From the IMG/VR virus record IMGVR_UViG_2703719389_000008: DNA of 9,301 bases; one strand, written 5' to 3'. Made by a program: the position numbers and the translations under genes. Origin of the DNA: a virus. Lineage: Duplodnaviria; Heunggongvirae; Uroviricota; Caudoviricetes. Of the stretch, positions 2,203 to 8,363 are shown one piece after another (the first letter of the stretch is position 1; each line of letters begins with the position of its first letter). The notes beneath the pieces were generated by a model. It was not told the origin of the DNA. It did no database searches and worked only from the letters and a program-made list of their open reading frames with translations.

Positions 2203-2479
2203 AGCCTGCTTCTCCTTGCCTTTCGGCACGTAAGAGGCTAACCTAGATTTGCCGTTCATAGATTGAGCCTCAGATTAATGTTAAGCGTCTTGCAGGACGC
2301 GTAATGTTAACTGGGGCTTTTCTCTATCTGCCTTTGGTGTTCATGCCTGAGACAGATAGCCTCAAGCACCCGCAGCCATTCTACTTAACTCCCGTCACCT
2401 CGCCAATATGAAATCAATCAGAAAGGCGAACCATAAGAGCAATAGCAAGACAATAAGGCCCGCATGGTCGTACAAAGAC

Positions 2480-5278
2480 TCAGGCACCGTGACATTTTTT
2501 GTACTTTATTCCCGAGCCACAGGGGCATTGTTCATTCCGGCCGACCGCACCAAAAACTTCAGTTAATTTAGTCTTTGCTGCTTTATGGGCAAGCTGTACG
2601 ATGTAATTTGATTGATTTTGGATTTCTTGACGCTGTACACCTGTGAGGCCTTCGATATAGGGAGCAAGGCGCTGCATTTCGACATCAGCTGCTTTATGCT
2701 GACCCGATAGTGCTAATATGACTGCGTATTGGCTTCGAACCTGAATCAGTCGATGTACTAGACCTGCCTCATTGACAACCGGCAGGACATGTTGCTCCAT
2801 GACTTCCTTGGCACCGTCGTAATCCTTTATGGCAACAAACTCATCCGCCAGATCTTGGCCCACCCTGACCATGGATTCCGGGGCCATGGCCAGATTGTAG
2901 AACTTCATCGAATGAATACGCAGTAATGGTGACAGTTTTCCCTGCGCATCACGAATTCTGGCCAGCAACTCCAGAGCATCAGCCATATGTTTAAAGTGTT
3001 CCTGCATATTTTCGGAATGATTAATAGTTTTCCATAATGCGTCGGCGTTTTTTCCTATGACATCAGCAGGTGTGATACCAAATAAAGAATAGTACCCTTG
3101 TATAACATTACAGCTTAATGTTTCAGCATCCTTGAGTTTTTTTAATCTCCAGAGTGCAATGGCATGGTTGTAGTCAAAGATGCGTTTATGTTCTTCATCT
3201 GGGAGTTGGGGGCGGACTTCCTGTGCCAGCTTTTGAACTTCTCGTGCATCATTGCTTTCTGCCGAAAATAACATTCGTTTCATTGCATAGGCCATCTCTT
3301 CTTGATAGCCGAACTTGTGCTCCGCAAGTAAAGCTCCCATGATGTTTAACCTCTGAGCAATGTGGTCGGATATTCCGTCTTTAAGCTCAACGAAAACAAG
3401 GCCATCCAATGCCCAGAATTTATGAACAGGTCCCAATAAGTCCGATGTTGCAGCACGCTCCAAGCTTGCAAGAATGTCGACCGTCACGCCCATCTCATAA
3501 AACATTTCTTGGCCTGAGAGTTCGATCAACGTCGTGACATCATTGAGCTTAATATAAAGTTGAGTCAACAACGATAACCGTTTTGTATTGCGGGTATTAT
3601 GAAGACTTTCAACTAAAAGGTCTTTCAGCGCTAGTAGCGCTTTGTTCGATATACCCTGATCCATCAGTTCCAGATGTTGCAGTCCTAGCCCCCTGACAGC
3701 ATCATGTACCTTCAGGGTCTGGTTTCCATAAATTTCAATAGTGCCAGTAGCGCGCATTTTCCTAATTAAAGAAGCAGCACTGCTTGGTGAAATGTTCAGC
3801 GAATTGATTAGGAGCGTAGAAATCTCTTCGCGACTCAGCCCTACGTCAGAGAGACTGAACAATGCCAGCGCGCTCTGAAGTAGTGATTCAAATCCCTGAA
3901 ATACACGTGACAGAATAATTTCTTGGGCGGTTTCCGCAGTATGGGTTTGTTGCTGGAGTTCAGCACACAGAGCATCGACATTACGCTCATAATCAGAAAC
4001 GGCGATTTTTGCGGCGCTCTCTACATACAGGGGAAGACCACCAGTGTAAGCCCGTAGCTGCTCGTATCCCATAGCGGTGGCAAATCCTCCGATATCGTTT
4101 ACAACGACAGCTACCGTATCGAGATTCCATCCCTGCAGGCCCTCGCGCTGTAGCCCCGTCATGACCTCCAGTTCGCGAACGTTTTCGTGAGGCTGGCACA
4201 ACAGCACAAAACGAATATGTGTAGTTGCATTCAGAACATCCAGTAGATTTTCCGCAGGTACACGATGGGCGTTATCCAGAACCAGCACCAAGGTGGTACC
4301 CTGCTCTTTCAGGTAGGTATCAAAACTCCTAAGAGCCTCAAAACCACTGGCACCGGGGAGCAAAATCCTGCGCAAACCGTCTTGGTCACGGGCTGTAAAT
4401 CTAGCAGCCATCTCGCGCACCAGCGTACTGGCCAGAGCTGGACCGGGAAGATCACCGGTGTCGTAATAAGCACAAAGTGCAGTGGAGTGTAATGCGGCCT
4501 GTGCGGCCCAAGCTGTCTTGCCTGCACCTGAGAGTCCACAAAGGATACGGATCCGCTCACCAGATGTGAGAGAAGGTTCTTCGTTCTGTGGGCGGTACAG
4601 TGCTGGTGGTGCAGGAAAGTCCTGTAGCTGAACGATCAACTGTTCAAATAGTTCAGTAAGTTCTTCCGTGAAAAACGTATGTTGTCCATTGGTATCGCCT
4701 CCGGTGGCGGCAAGCTGAACCAATCCTGCTAACTTCCAAATCAAGGATTCTGGGGACAATAGTGAAAATTTCAGCTTTTCTGCTTCTGCGATACACCATG
4801 TGGCCGCATCAGCCAGAGTACTCCATGCGGGCGGAAGTGCCGGGTGACGTCCAGCTGTCGACTGGGGCCAGACAATAAGAACATCAGAAGGAAGCTTTTT
4901 ATCGTCAATCATCTTCTGAAGCAGCGGTCCAGGCGCCTGGTTTACAATAATCACAAAAGAAGCCACCCCTTCGCGGTTTGCCGAAGTATGCTCATTTCTG
5001 AGCTTTACAAATCGCTCCAGAGCCCCCGACACATCGTTGGGCATAATAGGTTTTGAACGGGTTTTAACCTGAATGTAGAGACGTTCCTGTTTGGATTTCA
5101 GCTCAATATCCTCATCAAGCTCGACAGTTACTGAGTCCATAGCTGCCCTCTGCGCCAAAAGTAAGCAGCCTACAGCGTAAAGATGCTGGTAAAGGAACCC
5201 CCGGTGTACCGCTTCGATACGCACCAACTGCACAGGATCCAGTACGTCCAGATTTTGTTTGTTTTCACTTCCCCACAT
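2480..5278 (-). CDS. Large multidomain protein (932 aa): PD-(D/E)xK-like nuclease motif, STAND (NB-ARC-like) P-loop NTPase, TPR-like helical repeats, C-terminal SEC-C zinc ribbon; candidate NLR-like antiviral sensor
   Basis: Uninterrupted 2.8-kb ORF with AAGGAA RBS 6 nt upstream of ATG 5278. Walker A GLSGAGKT (nt 4514..4537, verified by translation), Walker B LVLVLDN (4271..4291, verified), GGLPL (about 4028..4042), VHD (aa 524-526), N-terminal D57...Q70-V-K72 (about 5063..5122), C-terminal CPCGSGIKYKKCH (2489..2527). Confidence 0.85.
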   Translation of the reverse strand: MWGSENKQNLDVLDPVQLVRIEAVHRGFLYQHLYAVGCLLLAQRAAMDSVTVELDEDIELKSKQERLYIQVKTRSKPIMPNDVSGALERFVKLRNEHTSANREGVASFVIIVNQAPGPLLQKMIDDKKLPSDVLIVWPQSTAGRHPALPPAWSTLADAATWCIAEAEKLKFSLLSPESLIWKLAGLVQLAATGGDTNGQHTFFTEELTELFEQLIVQLQDFPAPPALYRPQNEEPSLTSGERIRILCGLSGAGKTAWAAQAALHSTALCAYYDTGDLPGPALASTLVREMAARFTARDQDGLRRILLPGASGFEALRSFDTYLKEQGTTLVLVLDNAHRVPAENLLDVLNATTHIRFVLLCQPHENVRELEVMTGLQREGLQGWNLDTVAVVVNDIGGFATAMGYEQLRAYTGGLPLYVESAAKIAVSDYERNVDALCAELQQQTHTAETAQEIILSRVFQGFESLLQSALALFSLSDVGLSREEISTLLINSLNISPSSAASLIRKMRATGTIEIYGNQTLKVHDAVRGLGLQHLELMDQGISNKALLALKDLLVESLHNTRNTKRLSLLTQLYIKLNDVTTLIELSGQEMFYEMGVTVDILASLERAATSDLLGPVHKFWALDGLVFVELKDGISDHIAQRLNIMGALLAEHKFGYQEEMAYAMKRMLFSAESNDAREVQKLAQEVRPQLPDEEHKRIFDYNHAIALWRLKKLKDAETLSCNVIQGYYSLFGITPADVIGKNADALWKTINHSENMQEHFKHMADALELLARIRDAQGKLSPLLRIHSMKFYNLAMAPESMVRVGQDLADEFVAIKDYDGAKEVMEQHVLPVVNEAGLVHRLIQVRSQYAVILALSGQHKAADVEMQRLAPYIEGLTGVQRQEIQNQSNYIVQLAHKAAKTKLTEVFGAVGRNEQCPCGSGIKYKKCHGA

Positions 5279-5347
5279 GACCTATTCCTTGAGCTATTTG
5301 TTTGACGGACTCACATTAGTACTTCAATGTAATCAATTGAACTTGAA

Positions 5348-5377
5348 TTATAATTAAAAGAGGCAAAGAAAAGTCAT
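5348..5377 (-). promoter_or_regulatory. Candidate sigma70 promoter for the 932-aa gene
   Basis: On the minus strand ATGACT (-35-like), 19-bp spacer, TATAAT (-10) within an AT-rich 243-bp intergenic region. Sequence-only guess with a long spacer. Confidence 0.25.
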
Positions 5378-5521
5378 TTGGCCTATTCTCCGTTGATTAA
5401 TACAAACTAACGATACCAACGTTCACCTAGCTCAAAGCTGACAACCAGACTAGGTCTGGGCCTGTGCCATCGAAGTGTCAATTAATATCTGAACTAATGC
5501 TCTTTAATTTCGTCACTTCAA

Positions 5522-5773
5522 TTAATACCGAACATTTCCCTGATAAAATTCCAGTATGCGCTGCATAACTTCGCTCTGACGACACTCGCGACAAATTATA
5601 TTCTGTCGTCTGTTGTAACGGCGTATTTCGCCATCTAGCAATGAATAAATCAGGTCAGGGTCGCTCTTCTTTTTCACTGCCGCTCTCGACATTTTTTTTG
5701 CGGGCTTTTCCCCAGTCCTTACGAGCCTGCTCCGAAGGAAATATTCCATGTCCTGAACCATATACTGCGCCAC
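5522..5773 (-). CDS. Ren-like C-terminal segment; probably the downstream half of a frameshifted 135-aa gene
   Basis: C-terminus ...NIICRECRQSEVMQRILEFYQGNVRY resembles the lambda Ren C-terminus (KECRQSAAMKRVLAVYG, from memory). Overlaps 5655..5930 in the +1 frame across an A8 run. Confidence 0.45.
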   Translation of the reverse strand: MAQYMVQDMEYFLRSRLVRTGEKPAKKMSRAAVKKKSDPDLIYSLLDGEIRRYNRRQNIICRECRQSEVMQRILEFYQGNVRY

Positions 5774-5930
5774 TAACTACCAGCTCTTTCACCAGAACTT
5801 CTATCAGGTGTCTCGTCGCCCCGGTTTCATTTTCCAGTTGTTTACGCGTTTTTCGCCCATCTCTGCGTACCAGTTCCACAATGCGCGCCTTCACTTCTTC
5901 CCGCAGTTCGGGAGTAAAAACTTTTGCCAC
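5655..5930 (-). CDS. Small HTH-like protein; probably the upstream half of the frameshifted Ren-like gene
   Basis: 91-aa ORF. Frame changes relative to 5522..5773 at the A8 homopolymer (5692..5699); an A7 tract would give one continuous 135-aa ORF. Confidence 0.45.
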   Translation of the reverse strand: MAKVFTPELREEVKARIVELVRRDGRKTRKQLENETGATRHLIEVLVKELVVSGAVYGSGHGIFPSEQARKDWGKARKKNVESGSEKEERP

Positions 5931-5967: not shown

Positions 5968-6918
5968 TTACCCTCTGAATCCCGGCGGAATTTCGGTGTC
6001 CGGTTCAGAAATATGATTAACACAACGCTGGTTGTTCGTGCCGCTTACCGGGAGCAACCAGGGGTTTTCAAAATTCCGGTCCGGTCCAAAAAACGTCGTC
6101 GCTCGCTGAACAAATTCCGTTCCCGTTTTCCCGGTAGCAGCCAGGTATCTTGTGTAACGCCTTACACCATCCAGCATGGCCTCTGGTGGCACCCCCTCGC
6201 GTAATCTGGCCTTCCAGGCACTGAAAGCGGATTTCTTCGGGTTTGCCCCGGCTCGTAACGGGTATTCCCGCCAGACCTGTTCGAACACATCCGGATAATC
6301 CACTCGTCCCACAGGCTGCCCGGTGTTTTCCGGGACTACCCGATCGGCTTCCCGCTGAATGGCGGAATCGGCTTCAGGCTGCTGCAGTTGGTGTGATTGC
6401 TCCGGCCCAGCGGTCATCGCCTGCTGCACAGCGCCCGAATCGGCTTTCAGCGCATACGCTGAATCGGCTTCCGGTGTCGTGCCTGCGGGCTGGCCAGGAG
6501 TGACGGTCTGAACATCCCCTACATGGTTCGTGGCGTTTTTTACGCCATGGACCATAGTGTTTTGATCTTCTTTATCTGTATCTCTATCTGTATCTTTATC
6601 TGTCGTGACTCGTCGTGACATGTGCGTGACATTTCGTGACGCGCCGTGACAATCGCCATTTTGTTCCCGCTTTCTTTCCCTCTCACGCTGCGCCCTCTTG
6701 CGCTCTGCCGGAGATTTTGCGGTTTGCGAAATATTGCCGTTGTCCTCTTTAAGCACCTGGCGTTTTTCCCATCCAGTGATTAAATCACCATCAAGTACCC
6801 GCCCCTGCATCGTCTGCAAAATTGAATCAATTACCTCTTCTGTCACGTCGAGCGCACTTGCCAAATCTTCTGTCGTGACATCAATGTGACCTCGCGTGAC
6901 ATTTCGTGACGCGCTCAC
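5968..6918 (-). CDS. Phage replication initiator (replisome-organizer type), main reading frame, with repeat-encoded low-complexity linker and DnaD/phage-associated-like C-terminal domain
   Basis: 316-aa ORF (GTG at 6918). Aa 15-40 EDLASALDVTEEVIDSILQTMQGRVL match the second half of the replisome-organizer N-terminal domain; linker TDKDTDRDTDKED is encoded by DNA direct repeats; C-terminal block VWREYP...AWKARL...RYTRYL...ATTFF...ENPW. Sits directly after ydaS-ydaT, the O position of a lambdoid phage. Confidence 0.7.
   Translation of the reverse strand: MSASRNVTRGHIDVTTEDLASALDVTEEVIDSILQTMQGRVLDGDLITGWEKRQVLKEDNGNISQTAKSPAERKRAQRERERKREQNGDCHGASRNVTHMSRRVTTDKDTDRDTDKEDQNTMVHGVKNATNHVGDVQTVTPGQPAGTTPEADSAYALKADSGAVQQAMTAGPEQSHQLQQPEADSAIQREADRVVPENTGQPVGRVDYPDVFEQVWREYPLRAGANPKKSAFSAWKARLREGVPPEAMLDGVRRYTRYLAATGKTGTEFVQRATTFFGPDRNFENPWLLPVSGTNNQRCVNHISEPDTEIPPGFRG
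6561..6650. repeat. Origin-like repeat block: three 12-bp tandem repeats in an AT-rich stretch plus five helically phased CGTGAC hexamers
   Basis: 12-bp units ATCTGTATCTCT / ATCTGTATCTTT / ATCTGTCGTGAC at 6574, 6586, 6598. CGTGAC at 6604, 6614, 6625, 6635, 6645 (10-11 bp spacing). Lies inside the replication gene. Confidence 0.6.
6874..6914. repeat. Second phased hexamer array, including a 21-bp exact direct repeat of the origin-like block
   Basis: (C/T)GTGAC at 6874, 6885, 6895, 6905. GCGTGACATTTCGTGACGCGC at 6894..6914 is identical to 6624..6644. Confidence 0.55.
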
Positions 6919-7039
6919 CAGGAGCGTGGATATACACTGCCATCACTGTTGCAATTGGCTGCCCTGACACCCTGGCAATTGTTCGCCACTTAGGGTCATT
7001 TGGCATGTCATGCCATAATCTGAGCCAGGCGTTAGCCAT
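6881..7039 (-). pseudogene. N-terminal fragment of the replication initiator in a different frame (52 codons); apparent +1 frame break relative to 5968..6918
   Basis: ATG at 7039 preceded by GAGGTGAG Shine-Dalgarno. Translation MANAWLRLWHDMPNDPKWRTIARVSGQPIATVMAVYIHAPGERVTKCHARSH (verified codon by codon) carries the W-L-[KR]-L...D-P-K signature of replisome-organizer N-terminal domains. Ends at TGA 6881..6883 inside the hexamer array. Confidence 0.4.
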
Positions 7040-7110
7040 ACTCACCTCTTCTGATACCGAATCTTTTTACTCACGAATTGCCGGAAGCGATTCGATATGG
7101 CTATTGTCAG

Positions 7111-7536
7111 TCAATGTACTGCCACAGCATTTCCTGCCGGGCCACCACGGTTCATCTGATTGAAACCGGCGATTGCCACTGCGACAAAATCATCAGCGTC
7201 TCTCACCAGTCGCTCCCGCGTCTCCACCAACTCCCGAAAATAAGCTGAACTGTGGCTGCGCATTCTGGCCACCAGCAAAGGTGGCATTGCCTTTTCGATC
7301 GCTGGTAACAACGCCTGAATTTTTTCAACTGCATCAGGGGTGTCTTTCTCTACCCAGCGGAAAATTTTCTGGGTATTGCGAGCCAGGGCTTCCGGATGGC
7401 TGTCGTCATACAGTTCAGGAAACGTCATACCCAACTCAAAATAAGCCTGGGTTATTCCAGCTGCTGGAACTTTTTCGCCATCAGGACGCGCCCAGGCATT
7501 CATCGCCATGCGGATGTGTTCATGCTTGATTTTCAT
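7111..7536 (-). CDS. ydaT: YdaT-family protein (141 aa), CII-like position in the early-right operon
   Basis: N-terminus MKIKHEHI... characteristic of the Rac YdaT family; start overlaps the ydaS stop by 17 nt. Confidence 0.8.
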   Translation of the reverse strand: MKIKHEHIRMAMNAWARPDGEKVPAAGITQAYFELGMTFPELYDDSHPEALARNTQKIFRWVEKDTPDAVEKIQALLPAIEKAMPPLLVARMRSHSSAYFRELVETRERLVRDADDFVAVAIAGFNQMNRGGPAGNAVAVH

Positions 7537-7801
7537 GAATCAAGCTCCTAGTAAGTGGTTGTGTTAACGTTTTGGTATCTTCCAGCTCGGGCCAAATATT
7601 CATCCAATCAAAAGGCCTTAGTTGCTGACGTGTAACTTCACCATTACTGGCTCGCTCAATAAGGACACATAACGATGCCCCTAACATTTGACCTTTACTC
7701 AATGCCTTTCTTAGATAACCGATGCTAGTACCACACTCACATGCAAACATACGCTGTTCATCTGACGAAAGAGAATTGAGAAATATTCTTAATTCTTCCA
7801 T
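7520..7801 (-). CDS. ydaS: Cro-like HTH regulator, YdaS family (93 aa)
   Basis: HTH segment GTSIGYLRKALSKGQ and conserved E(V)TRQQLRPFDW block; AAGGAG RBS 5 nt upstream of ATG 7801; divergent from the repressor gene. Confidence 0.75.
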   Translation of the reverse strand: MEELRIFLNSLSSDEQRMFACECGTSIGYLRKALSKGQMLGASLCVLIERASNGEVTRQQLRPFDWMNIWPELEDTKTLTQPLTRSLIHENQA

Positions 7802-7826
7802 AGCTACTCCTTAGTAAACACAGCAA

Positions 7827-7895
7827 AGAATACCCACAGGTAAACAAAAGTCAATACCCTTGGGTTGTTTACCTTGCGGTAATCGCATCTATTAT
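7827..7895. promoter_or_regulatory. Divergent immunity promoters with operator repeats
   Basis: Minus strand: -35 TTGACT (7849..7854) and -10 TATTCT (7827..7832), 16-bp spacer, driving ydaS. Plus strand: -35 TTGTTT (7865..7870) and -10 TATTAT (7890..7895) ending 6 nt before ATG 7902. 10-bp inverted repeat AGGTAAACAA (7838..7847) / TTGTTTACCT (7865..7874), third GTAAACA at 7815..7821, plus TACCC-N2-GGGT(A/T) half-palindromes at 7831..7842 and 7855..7866. Confidence 0.5.
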
Positions 7896-7901
7896 TTACC
7901 T

Positions 7902-8321
7902 ATGGACAAATATGAATTTAGACGACAACAACTCATCAAAATTCGTGATGAGAAATGCGATGGTAAAGCGGTTAACGTGGCCAGAAAGATCGGTCGCGAG
8001 CCTTCTTATGTATCAAGAATGTTGTACCCAGAGGGGAAAAAAGGAAAAAAACGGATCGCTGATGATATGGTGGAGATTATAGAAGAGTCCTTTGGGTTAC
8101 CCCGGGGATGGATGGATGGTATCGTTTCATCATCAACGAACACAGCCTCCAATTATGAAACAAGGGTTCTAACGCCACGACAACGTATTTTTTTAGATCT
8201 CTTAGACGAACTGCCAGAAAGTGAAGCGGATAACTTATTAAAAACTCTTGAAGAGAAAAAACAGTATTACAATATGATCTACGAAGAAATCCGTAAAAAG
8301 AAAGCACAAAACGCATCATAA
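7902..8321 (+). CDS. CI-like prophage repressor (RacR/DicA-type HTH protein, 139 aa)
   Basis: HTH segment GKAVNVARKIGREPSYVSRML and C-terminal LDLLDELPESEADNLL, similar in layout to DicA/RacR-type repressors. No Shine-Dalgarno before ATG 7902 and a -10 just upstream, consistent with a leaderless cI-like transcript. The track's TTG start at 7860 is rejected. Confidence 0.7.
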   Translation: MDKYEFRRQQLIKIRDEKCDGKAVNVARKIGREPSYVSRMLYPEGKKGKKRIADDMVEIIEESFGLPRGWMDGIVSSSTNTASNYETRVLTPRQRIFLDLLDELPESEADNLLKTLEEKKQYYNMIYEEIRKKKAQNAS

Positions 8322-8363
8322 CTCACCAAACAACCAGTCACCAGTTAAGACACATCAAAAAAT

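Follow-up and report, generated by a model that had tools for sequence, protein, structure and literature searches.

The window analyzed here is a stretch of 9,301 nucleotides from a virus of the class Caudoviricetes (IMG/VR record IMGVR_UViG_2703719389_000008), and its minus strand carries one long gene encoding a protein of 932 residues. We consider it probable that this gene specifies a self-contained antiviral STAND protein of the Avs or bacterial NLR-like type, which is carried as accessory cargo of a Qin-like lambdoid prophage and would bind a phage product, oligomerize and cut DNA. Its product has the tripartite organization of such proteins, with a nuclease-type effector (residues 12–200), an NTPase core (residues 236–540) and TPR-like repeats (residues 541–909). 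The catalytic residues are conserved, the gene constitutes a discrete cassette within a prophage hotspot, and its relatives are associated with defense islands and mobile elements. An earlier note on this DNA, written from the sequence alone, had proposed the same design of effector, STAND NTPase and repeat sensor; the design was borne out by profile matches to the nuclease, the P-loop and the SEC-C motif, and by catalytic residues that are invariant in a large family.

Domain architecture of the 932-residue protein

The open reading frame (ORF) starts with ATG and ends with a stop codon at positions 2480–2482. Its product is identical to WP_000264572.1, a protein whose sole annotation is "SEC-C metal-binding domain-containing protein", and surveys based on PADLOC v2 will therefore miss it. 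As the earlier note had stated, the frame is uninterrupted; we located it on the minus strand and found the GLSGAGKT, LVLVLDN (ending at D335-N336), GGLPL and VHD motifs, as well as D57 and Q70-V-K72, all at the residues that had been quoted (Table 1). None of PADLOC, NCBIfam and Pfam assigned the whole protein to a family, with matches being obtained at the domain level only, and NCBIfam offered no full-length model.

Within the N-terminal domain, a Pfam match to Cap4_nuclease (PF14130) covered residues 25–77 (5.9e-6) and a PADLOC match to LmuA covered residues 26–119 (5e-7). A profile search of the PDB with the N-terminal 215 residues retrieved HamA, LmuA and AbCap4, and in the resulting alignments D57 and Q70-V-K72 coincided with DDID...VQVK of HamA and EDFE...IQVK of LmuA. 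The earlier note had regarded the motif as the QxK variant of PD-(D/E)xK nucleases. The Cap4_nuclease match and the motif alignment agree with that assignment, and since the residues fall on the signatures of HamA and LmuA, the "variant" is in fact what is usual for this clade of nucleases. The profile match and the D...QxK triad, which aligns with AbCap4 as well, together point to membership in the Cap4/LmuA/HamA nuclease superfamily.

The central region matched Pfam AAA_22 at residues 239–364 (1.2e-7) and, at a lower level, AAA_16 (4e-4). It contains the elements expected of a STAND core, that is, a nucleotide-binding domain (NBD), helical domains and a winged-helix domain (WHD), with Walker A, Walker B and GxP motifs and a WHD histidine. 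The winged-helix region was modeled as a helix-helix-hairpin-helix arrangement at residues 483–538, and from its position the histidine of the VHD tripeptide would correspond to the histidine in the "MHD" of NB-ARC proteins. The residue following the Walker B aspartate, at position 336, is Asn in 95 and Asp in 10 of the 105 family sequences aligned as described below. Most members thus have D-N rather than D-D/E, so that nucleotide binding may outweigh hydrolysis; this would be in line with the findings reported for SeAvs7 (Lee et al., 2026; bioRxiv 10.64898/2026.01.04.697583).

An AlphaFold2 model was built from a 30-sequence alignment and had a mean predicted local distance difference test (pLDDT) score of 79. 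When the earlier note's proposal to combine structure prediction with Foldseek was followed, the best PDB match of the model was an antiviral STAND protein, SeAvs3 in complex with phage terminase (8dgc, 3e-13). It was followed by the archaeal STAND-TPR protein PH0952 (6mfv), plant NLR resistosomes, HamA and AbCap4.

The C-terminus is formed by a SEC-C zinc knuckle, which had been recognized by the earlier note and was identified by Pfam at residues 914–931 (8e-10). The sequence of the tail at residues 911–932 is AVGRNEQCPCGSGIKYKKCHGA, and the C-terminal end of the 932-residue protein carries CPCGSGIKYKKCH. Searches of the PDB by sequence, either with the single sequence or with a 30-sequence profile, returned SEC-C peptides only, namely the C-terminal peptides of SecA (1sx0 and 1ozb, 3e-5). 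In the AlphaFold2 model the tail is of low confidence (pLDDT 45–74). SEC-C is present in approximately 66 of 104 full-length family representatives, and the remaining one-third or so stop directly after the final sensor helix. Three relatives lacking SEC-C have tails rich in Lys and Arg instead, and these substitute tails hint that the task of the tail may be electrostatic docking. The relatives without a SEC-C tail include P0224, P0315, P0316 and about 35 others. Overall, the tail appears to be an accessory module that could serve in autoinhibition, oligomer contacts or host-factor docking.

The only PADLOC matches of the protein were to LmuA at the N-terminus and to other models on the SEC-C tail. 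The latter comprised the C-terminal parts of the CBASS "E2" and "E1-E2" models and the candidate PDC-S12 (E-values from 5e-5 to 3e-4). Zinc knuckles of the SecA type thus seem to be a repeated terminal feature of defense proteins that are otherwise unrelated. The motif also occurs in YchJ and YecA.

Family size, conservation and modularity

A word-indexed search retrieved 933 homologs, almost all of 927–944 residues, from Enterobacterales, Vibrio, Shewanella, Aeromonas, Alteromonas, Pseudomonas and some Betaproteobacteria. An exhaustive profile search, counted as clusters at 50% identity with E ≤ 1e-30, yielded 392 clusters with a constant length of about 930 residues. Conservation was evaluated in an alignment of the 932-residue protein with 104 full-length representatives (n = 105). 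The nuclease residues D57 and Q70 were found in 105/105 sequences and K72 in 104/105, while K254, D335 and P416 of the NTPase core were likewise present in 105/105; H525 occurred in 100/105 and D526 in 95/105. Both enzymatic centers are therefore invariant over about 100 lineages at ≤50% identity, and the sensor is the least conserved region of the alignment.

Members of the family were also located on 54 plasmids, including those of Klebsiella, Pseudomonas megaplasmids, and plasmids of Rhizobium and Agrobacterium, and clusters at 90% identity cross several genera. Such spread on mobile elements is the lifestyle expected of a defense gene. Among 50,697 phage genomes, a megablast search with the gene gave no match, and a protein search of phage genomes gave two metagenomic contigs only, at 34–39% identity.

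One metagenomic relative of 893 residues, P0337, retained the NTPase, the sensor and the SEC-C tail (30% identity over 743 residues) and possessed a TIR-like domain in place of the nuclease. The Pfam match to TIR_2 (1.2e-4) is below threshold and this is a single case; the junction lies exactly at the conserved LQDFPxPP linker. P0337 hints at a possible swapping of effectors on a shared NTPase-sensor chassis.

Association with defense genes in other genera

Six contexts from genera other than Escherichia were examined, and Gabija, AbiH or DruA was encoded within 8 kb of the family gene in 6/6 of them, a small sample that does not amount to a statistical test of enrichment. In a metal-resistance element of the Pseudomonas/Aeromonas type, AbiH lies 60 bp downstream. 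In Vibrio cholerae, GajA/GajB are directly upstream, with AbiH (at 4.5 kb) and a PIN-domain gene farther away and an AAA_13 gene downstream. A divergent Gabija system adjoins the gene in Yersinia (GajA 1e-238, GajB 8e-192) and in Pantoea, where it was recognized by Pfam domains only. The Alteromonas homolog is cargo of a Tn7-like element together with AbiH, a SocA/Panacea gene and an M78-HTH pair, and the Variovorax homolog has HNH, M78-HTH and DruA (Druantia) genes nearby. In the sampled contexts, then, the family is located next to defense systems and on mobile elements, as are Avs proteins.

AbiH is directly adjacent to the family gene in both the Pseudomonas/Aeromonas and the Alteromonas contexts, in differing orientations, and the recurrence of AbiH and Gabija may go beyond the general clustering of defense islands. 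A two-gene system with either of them was considered and rejected: neither adjoins the gene in E. coli, and orientation and distance vary between genera. No neighbor was conserved across the contexts examined, and E. coli has none of these neighbors; for this reason we regard the gene as self-contained.

A mobile cassette in Qin-like prophages

In comparisons with Qin-like prophages devoid of the gene, homology ends at position 2456 and restarts at position 5430. The mobile unit is thus the segment 2457–5429, which contains a single gene, the 932-residue ORF. In Qin-like prophages the slot lies between DUF977 and hokD. The earlier note had compared its position with that of relBE in Qin, and indeed relB-relE of K-12 Qin are at the corresponding position, also directly upstream of hokD. 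The view that the site is a prophage hotspot was corroborated by the finding of four different cargos between identical flanks in other E. coli genomes. Three loci (L003, L004 and L005) have 1245–1507 bp of other cargo at this place, and the alternative cargos consist of a DUF5677 pseudogene with a 76-residue ORF, a gene for a hypothetical protein of 251 residues, and one for a hypothetical protein of 269 residues. In strain AHB10 (L002, NZ_OZ546984.1, 3645–10052), the STAND gene is split by ISEc52 (IS3 family) after approximately residue 200, and the adjacent slot, between a gene for a 92-residue hypothetical protein and hokD, is occupied by RosmerTA (RmrA 5.5e-102, RmrT 7.5e-10). Hence, hokD is flanked by two neighboring cargo slots.

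The gene was found in 16 of 5426 complete E. coli genomes, always on the chromosome and at least 99.3% identical, and it is intact in 15 of these 16 carriers. In NZ_CP148579 it resides in a lambdoid prophage beside tRNA-Ser/mtfA, with the gene order Q, RusA, DUF968, hypothetical, hokD, STAND gene, DUF977, replisome-organizer-like, YdaT and YdaS, followed by a divergently transcribed repressor-like gene, ydfABC and dicB. The backbone of this prophage is of the Qin type.

The G+C content of the ORF is 48%, against 37% in the 243-bp gap upstream (5279–5521). The earlier note's AT-rich leader of 243 bp therefore exists, but only 151 bp of it belong to the mobile cassette, so that it is only in part the gene's own. 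A candidate promoter with a perfect −10 hexamer, TATAAT, and ATGACT placed 19 nt upstream was read by eye within the 151 bp.

Disruption of neighboring backbone genes, also reported in the earlier note, was confirmed: DUF977 and the replisome-organizer-like gene are split, and DUF968 is truncated and duplicated in the window. The gene next to the cassette had been called "Ren-like"; it is DUF977 according to Pfam, and we found nothing that links it to Ren. Its two ORFs match profile positions 1–83 and 70–133, and the frameshift is annotated in NZ_CP148579 too, where the integrase and terB are pseudogenes. The replisome-organizer-like gene (5968–7045; 356 residues) is whole in NZ_CP148579 and is split in the window only, by an extra C at position 6925, into ORFs of 316 and 54 residues. 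A second single-base insertion, an A within an A run, was noted at position 8357 in an intergenic region. Both insertions could be either real mutations or sequencing errors.

Two other parts of the window were inspected. The prophage immunity region (7111–8321) contains YdaT-like (7111–7536) and YdaS-like (7520–7801) genes on the minus strand; facing them, at the repressor position on the plus strand, is an ORF of 153 residues (7860–8321) with no Pfam match. The left end (1–1599) is chimeric. Positions 97–834 form a second block of the DUF968 N-terminus and hypothetical gene, 93% identical to 1225–1896, after which come rem (an 83-residue ORF, 884–1135) and the junction with the truncated DUF968 (1201–1599); bases 1–54 are an exact repeat of 407–460 and of 1469–1522. 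This arrangement was absent from complete E. coli genomes, and it either arose when two Qin-like prophages recombined or is an artifact of assembly.

Table 1. Features of the STAND gene, its product and the adjacent prophage backbone, with positions in the window.
Feature	Position	Strand	Residues and remarks
932-residue ORF	2480–5278	−	Identical to WP_000264572.1; DNA 100% identical in two complete E. coli genomes
Cap4/LmuA/HamA-type PD-(D/E)xK nuclease domain, presumed effector	4679–5245	−	12–200
Predicted catalytic motif D57...Q70-V-K72 (ELDEDIE ... YIQVKTR)	5063–5110	−	Conservation and alignment to HamA and LmuA
Linker			~201–235; between nuclease and NBD-helical domains
NBD and helical domains	3959–4573	−	236–440
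Walker A, GLSGAGKT	4514–4537	−	248–255, K254; G251, G253 and K254 in 105/105
Walker B, TLVLVLDN	4271–4294	−	329–336; D335 in 105/105
GxP motif, GGLPL	4028–4042	−	413–417; P416 in 105/105, G414 in 97/105
Winged-helix region with H525-D526 ("VHD" 524–526)	3659–3958	−	441–540
TPR-like alpha-solenoid, presumed sensor	2552–3658	−	541–909, ~370 residues
SEC-C zinc knuckle	2483–2545	−	912–932; C918, C920, C929, H930
Mobile cargo cassette, 2973 bp	2457–5429	−	ORF with 151 bp upstream and 23 bp downstream
Putative Shine-Dalgarno AAGGAA	5285–5290	−	6 nt ahead of ATG; read from sequence
Candidate promoter ATGACT-N19-TATAAT	5347–5377	−	Read by eye; within the 151-bp leader of the cassette
hok/sok toxin-antitoxin locus (backbone)	2047–2371	−	Pfam HOK_GEF 4e-23; Rfam sok RF01794, 110 bits
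DUF977 gene, frameshifted (backbone)	5522–5930	−	ORFs 5655–5930 and 5522–5773

Proposed mechanism and alternative explanations

By analogy with SeAvs3 and EcAvs4 (Gao et al., 2022) and SeAvs7 (Lee et al., 2026), the type of ligand, the oligomerization, the degradation of DNA and the abortive outcome can be envisaged as follows. The resting state would be a closed monomer, probably ADP-bound, which H525 of the WHD may help to hold. Upon infection, the TPR-like C-terminal sensor of about 370 residues would bind a ligand produced by the phage, in all likelihood one of its conserved proteins. Binding would open the NTPase core and permit ATP to be bound via K254 and D335, with binding rather than hydrolysis probably driving the switch. 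ATP-bound protomers would then oligomerize and unite their N-terminal nuclease domains (D57, Q70 and K72) into an active assembly, and the active nuclease would degrade DNA indiscriminately, so that phage replication is stopped and the infected cell is lost.

Several observations weigh against this antiviral reading. Phage protection, toxicity, nuclease activity and oligomerization are all predicted properties. The Cap4_nuclease match, at 27.1 bits, is barely over the cut-off of 26.2, and the TIR swap consists of one metagenomic protein with a sub-threshold Pfam match. The domain matches that the earlier note had asked for were obtained from Pfam and PADLOC (Cap4_nuclease, AAA_22, SEC-C and the N-terminal LmuA match), but no PADLOC v2 model for Avs/AVAST (Avs1–Avs5) or PD-Lambda-4 (i.e., Avs8) was matched at E ≤ 1, nor was there a sequence match to STAND chains in the PDB, Avs included; the kinship with Avs therefore exists at the level of fold and architecture only. 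The sensor is much smaller than that of characterized Avs proteins such as SeAvs3, and a phage protein as the ligand is for that reason not assured. Lastly, a consensus sigma-70 scan with spacers of 16–18 nt gave no minus-strand promoter in the leader, so that expression in a lysogen is not assured; the scan overlooks ATGACT-N19-TATAAT because the spacer of this candidate is 19 nt.

The small sensor also bears on a variant of the Avs-like scheme that we consider unlikely, in which sensing would be indirect or assisted by a host factor: the SEC-C tail would dock on a host partner such as SecB or the ribosome, and the sensor would either survey phage proteins that are nascent or unfolded or protect that host factor from interference by the phage. 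SecB and the ribosome are known partners of the SecA tail. The tail of the present protein resembles the SecB-binding zinc domain of SecA as closely as a 20-residue peptide can, retaining R914, K925, K927 and K928; it is kept in about two-thirds of a very diverse family, and the Lys/Arg-rich tails of some members without it would fit electrostatic docking. The sensor itself is small for a module that would have to recognize an entire phage protein fold directly. Host-factor precedents can be found in the SeAvs7 paper (Lee et al., 2026), which places EF-Tu within the SeAvs7 complex and whose reference 8, by its title, ties DnaJ to bNACHT25. On the other hand, the approximately one-third of full-length relatives that lack the tail indicate that the core mechanism can do without it, many proteins that are otherwise unrelated and unconnected with SecB also contain SEC-C motifs, and the docking interaction is a predicted one for a tail modeled at low confidence. 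If such docking, on SecB, the ribosome or an acidic surface, did occur, it would amount to a chaperone- or ribosome-coupled form of pattern recognition, different from that described for other Avs families, in which folded phage proteins are bound directly in large pockets.

The location of the gene beside hok/sok, in the slot occupied by relBE in K-12, and its frequency on large conjugative plasmids raise a distinctly unlikely alternative, namely a nuclease under STAND control that works for its mobile element rather than against phages, through addiction or stabilization or by targeting competing plasmids and other mobile DNA, or that senses a small molecule or DNA damage in the manner of MalT with maltotriose. 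Its recurrent neighbors, however, are the anti-phage systems Gabija and AbiH, and the contexts examined contained no antitoxin-like partner and no conserved neighbor; Pfam detected no MalT-like DNA-binding output domain, and the effector-STAND-TPR design, with one apparent effector swap (the sub-threshold TIR of a single metagenomic protein), matches characterized Avs. Highly improbable, in our judgment, is an inactive relic or a non-defense signaling ATPase hitch-hiking in a decaying prophage. Decay is evident in the disrupted integrase, DUF977 and terB and, in the window, the replication gene; the gene is rare in E. coli and carries an IS3 insertion in one strain. Yet a run of 932 stop-free codons does not arise by chance (probability ~4e-20), the gene is intact in nearly all of its E. 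coli carriers, and both enzymatic centers are invariant across the family. A confident match to a non-defense family, which the earlier note had named as grounds for abandoning its proposal, was sought in Pfam, PADLOC, NCBIfam and PDB searches and none was found.

Should the antiviral function hold, a widespread family (about 390 clusters at 50% identity, with members in Salmonella, Klebsiella, Vibrio, Pseudomonas and Rhizobium) would join the bacterial NLR-like repertoire, and its unusually small size of 932 residues would make the protein a convenient minimal model of the STAND switch between a sensor and a Cap4-type nuclease. Learning what the SEC-C tail does could reveal a further way in which immune sensors exploit host machinery, and the sharply bounded slot beside hokD in Qin-like prophages could be mined for more defense genes.

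Prior recognition of the protein

The earlier note implied that the protein was new, and in this respect it has been overtaken. A protein 99% identical to it, WP_021564393.1 ("Escherichia", NTPase 227–435), is listed as seed #193 of 656 in Table S1 of the STAND census by Lee, Makarova, Wolf, Koonin, Gao et al. (2026), and the listed sequence differs from the present one at 2 of 209 residues. The protein is thus already catalogued as a STAND NTPase seeding a search for defense-related clades. In that preprint, 198 STAND clades were called defense-associated, and representatives of 30 further sensor clusters were cloned, with Enterobacteriaceae being favored. The E. coli representatives named there are EcAvs8, 19, 22, 23 and 24, and there is a real chance that the protein already belongs to a named family. 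SEC-C is not mentioned in the text or in the portion of the tables covered, nor do six other accessions of the family appear in that portion. A literature search for WP_000264572 and WP_021564393 returned no paper, and one on SEC-C in connection with STAND, Avs or defense returned only Rugutis, an unrelated lactococcal SEC-C protein. The small size and the SecA-type tail are still distinctive.

Comparison with known systems

The resemblance to SecA is confined to the last 21 residues, which match the CxCxSGx8C[HC] zinc knuckle, and nothing else of SecA was found. MalT and PH0952 are likewise STAND NTPases with MalT-like organization and helical-repeat sensors. MalT responds to a sugar, maltotriose, and activates transcription through a LuxR-type DNA-binding output, whereas the 932-residue protein has a predicted nuclease output and is encoded on mobile elements among defense genes. 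A MalT-type regulator was rejected, as no helix-turn-helix match was obtained with Pfam and the C-terminus is a SEC-C zinc knuckle.

Nucleases of the same superfamily are controlled differently elsewhere. Cap4 of CBASS is governed by a SAVED domain and a cyclic oligonucleotide, LmuA of Lamassu by the SMC-like LmuB, and HamA of Hachiman by the helicase HamB; the present protein instead unites the nuclease with a STAND NTPase in one chain, and none of these partners is encoded near the gene. Lamassu was dismissed because neither the window nor the 33 kb around the gene in NZ_CP148579 contains an SMC-like gene (LmuB). A CBASS Cap4 was also dismissed, with no SAVED match in Pfam or PADLOC and no cyclase gene nearby in NZ_CP148579.

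The closest counterparts are SeAvs3 (8DGC) and SeAvs7. The 932-residue protein is less than half the length of SeAvs3 (2028 residues), as the earlier note had recognized in calling it shorter than the Avs families, and it departs from both in its SEC-C zinc-knuckle end and in its D-N Walker B. It has in common with them the order of domains within one polypeptide, namely an N-terminal Cap4-like PD-(D/E)xK nuclease, a STAND NTPase and a C-terminal TPR-like sensor, as well as the conserved WHD histidine and a life in defense islands and on mobile elements, and it would be expected to follow the same logic, in which the binding of a ligand leads to oligomerization and thereby to activation of the nuclease.

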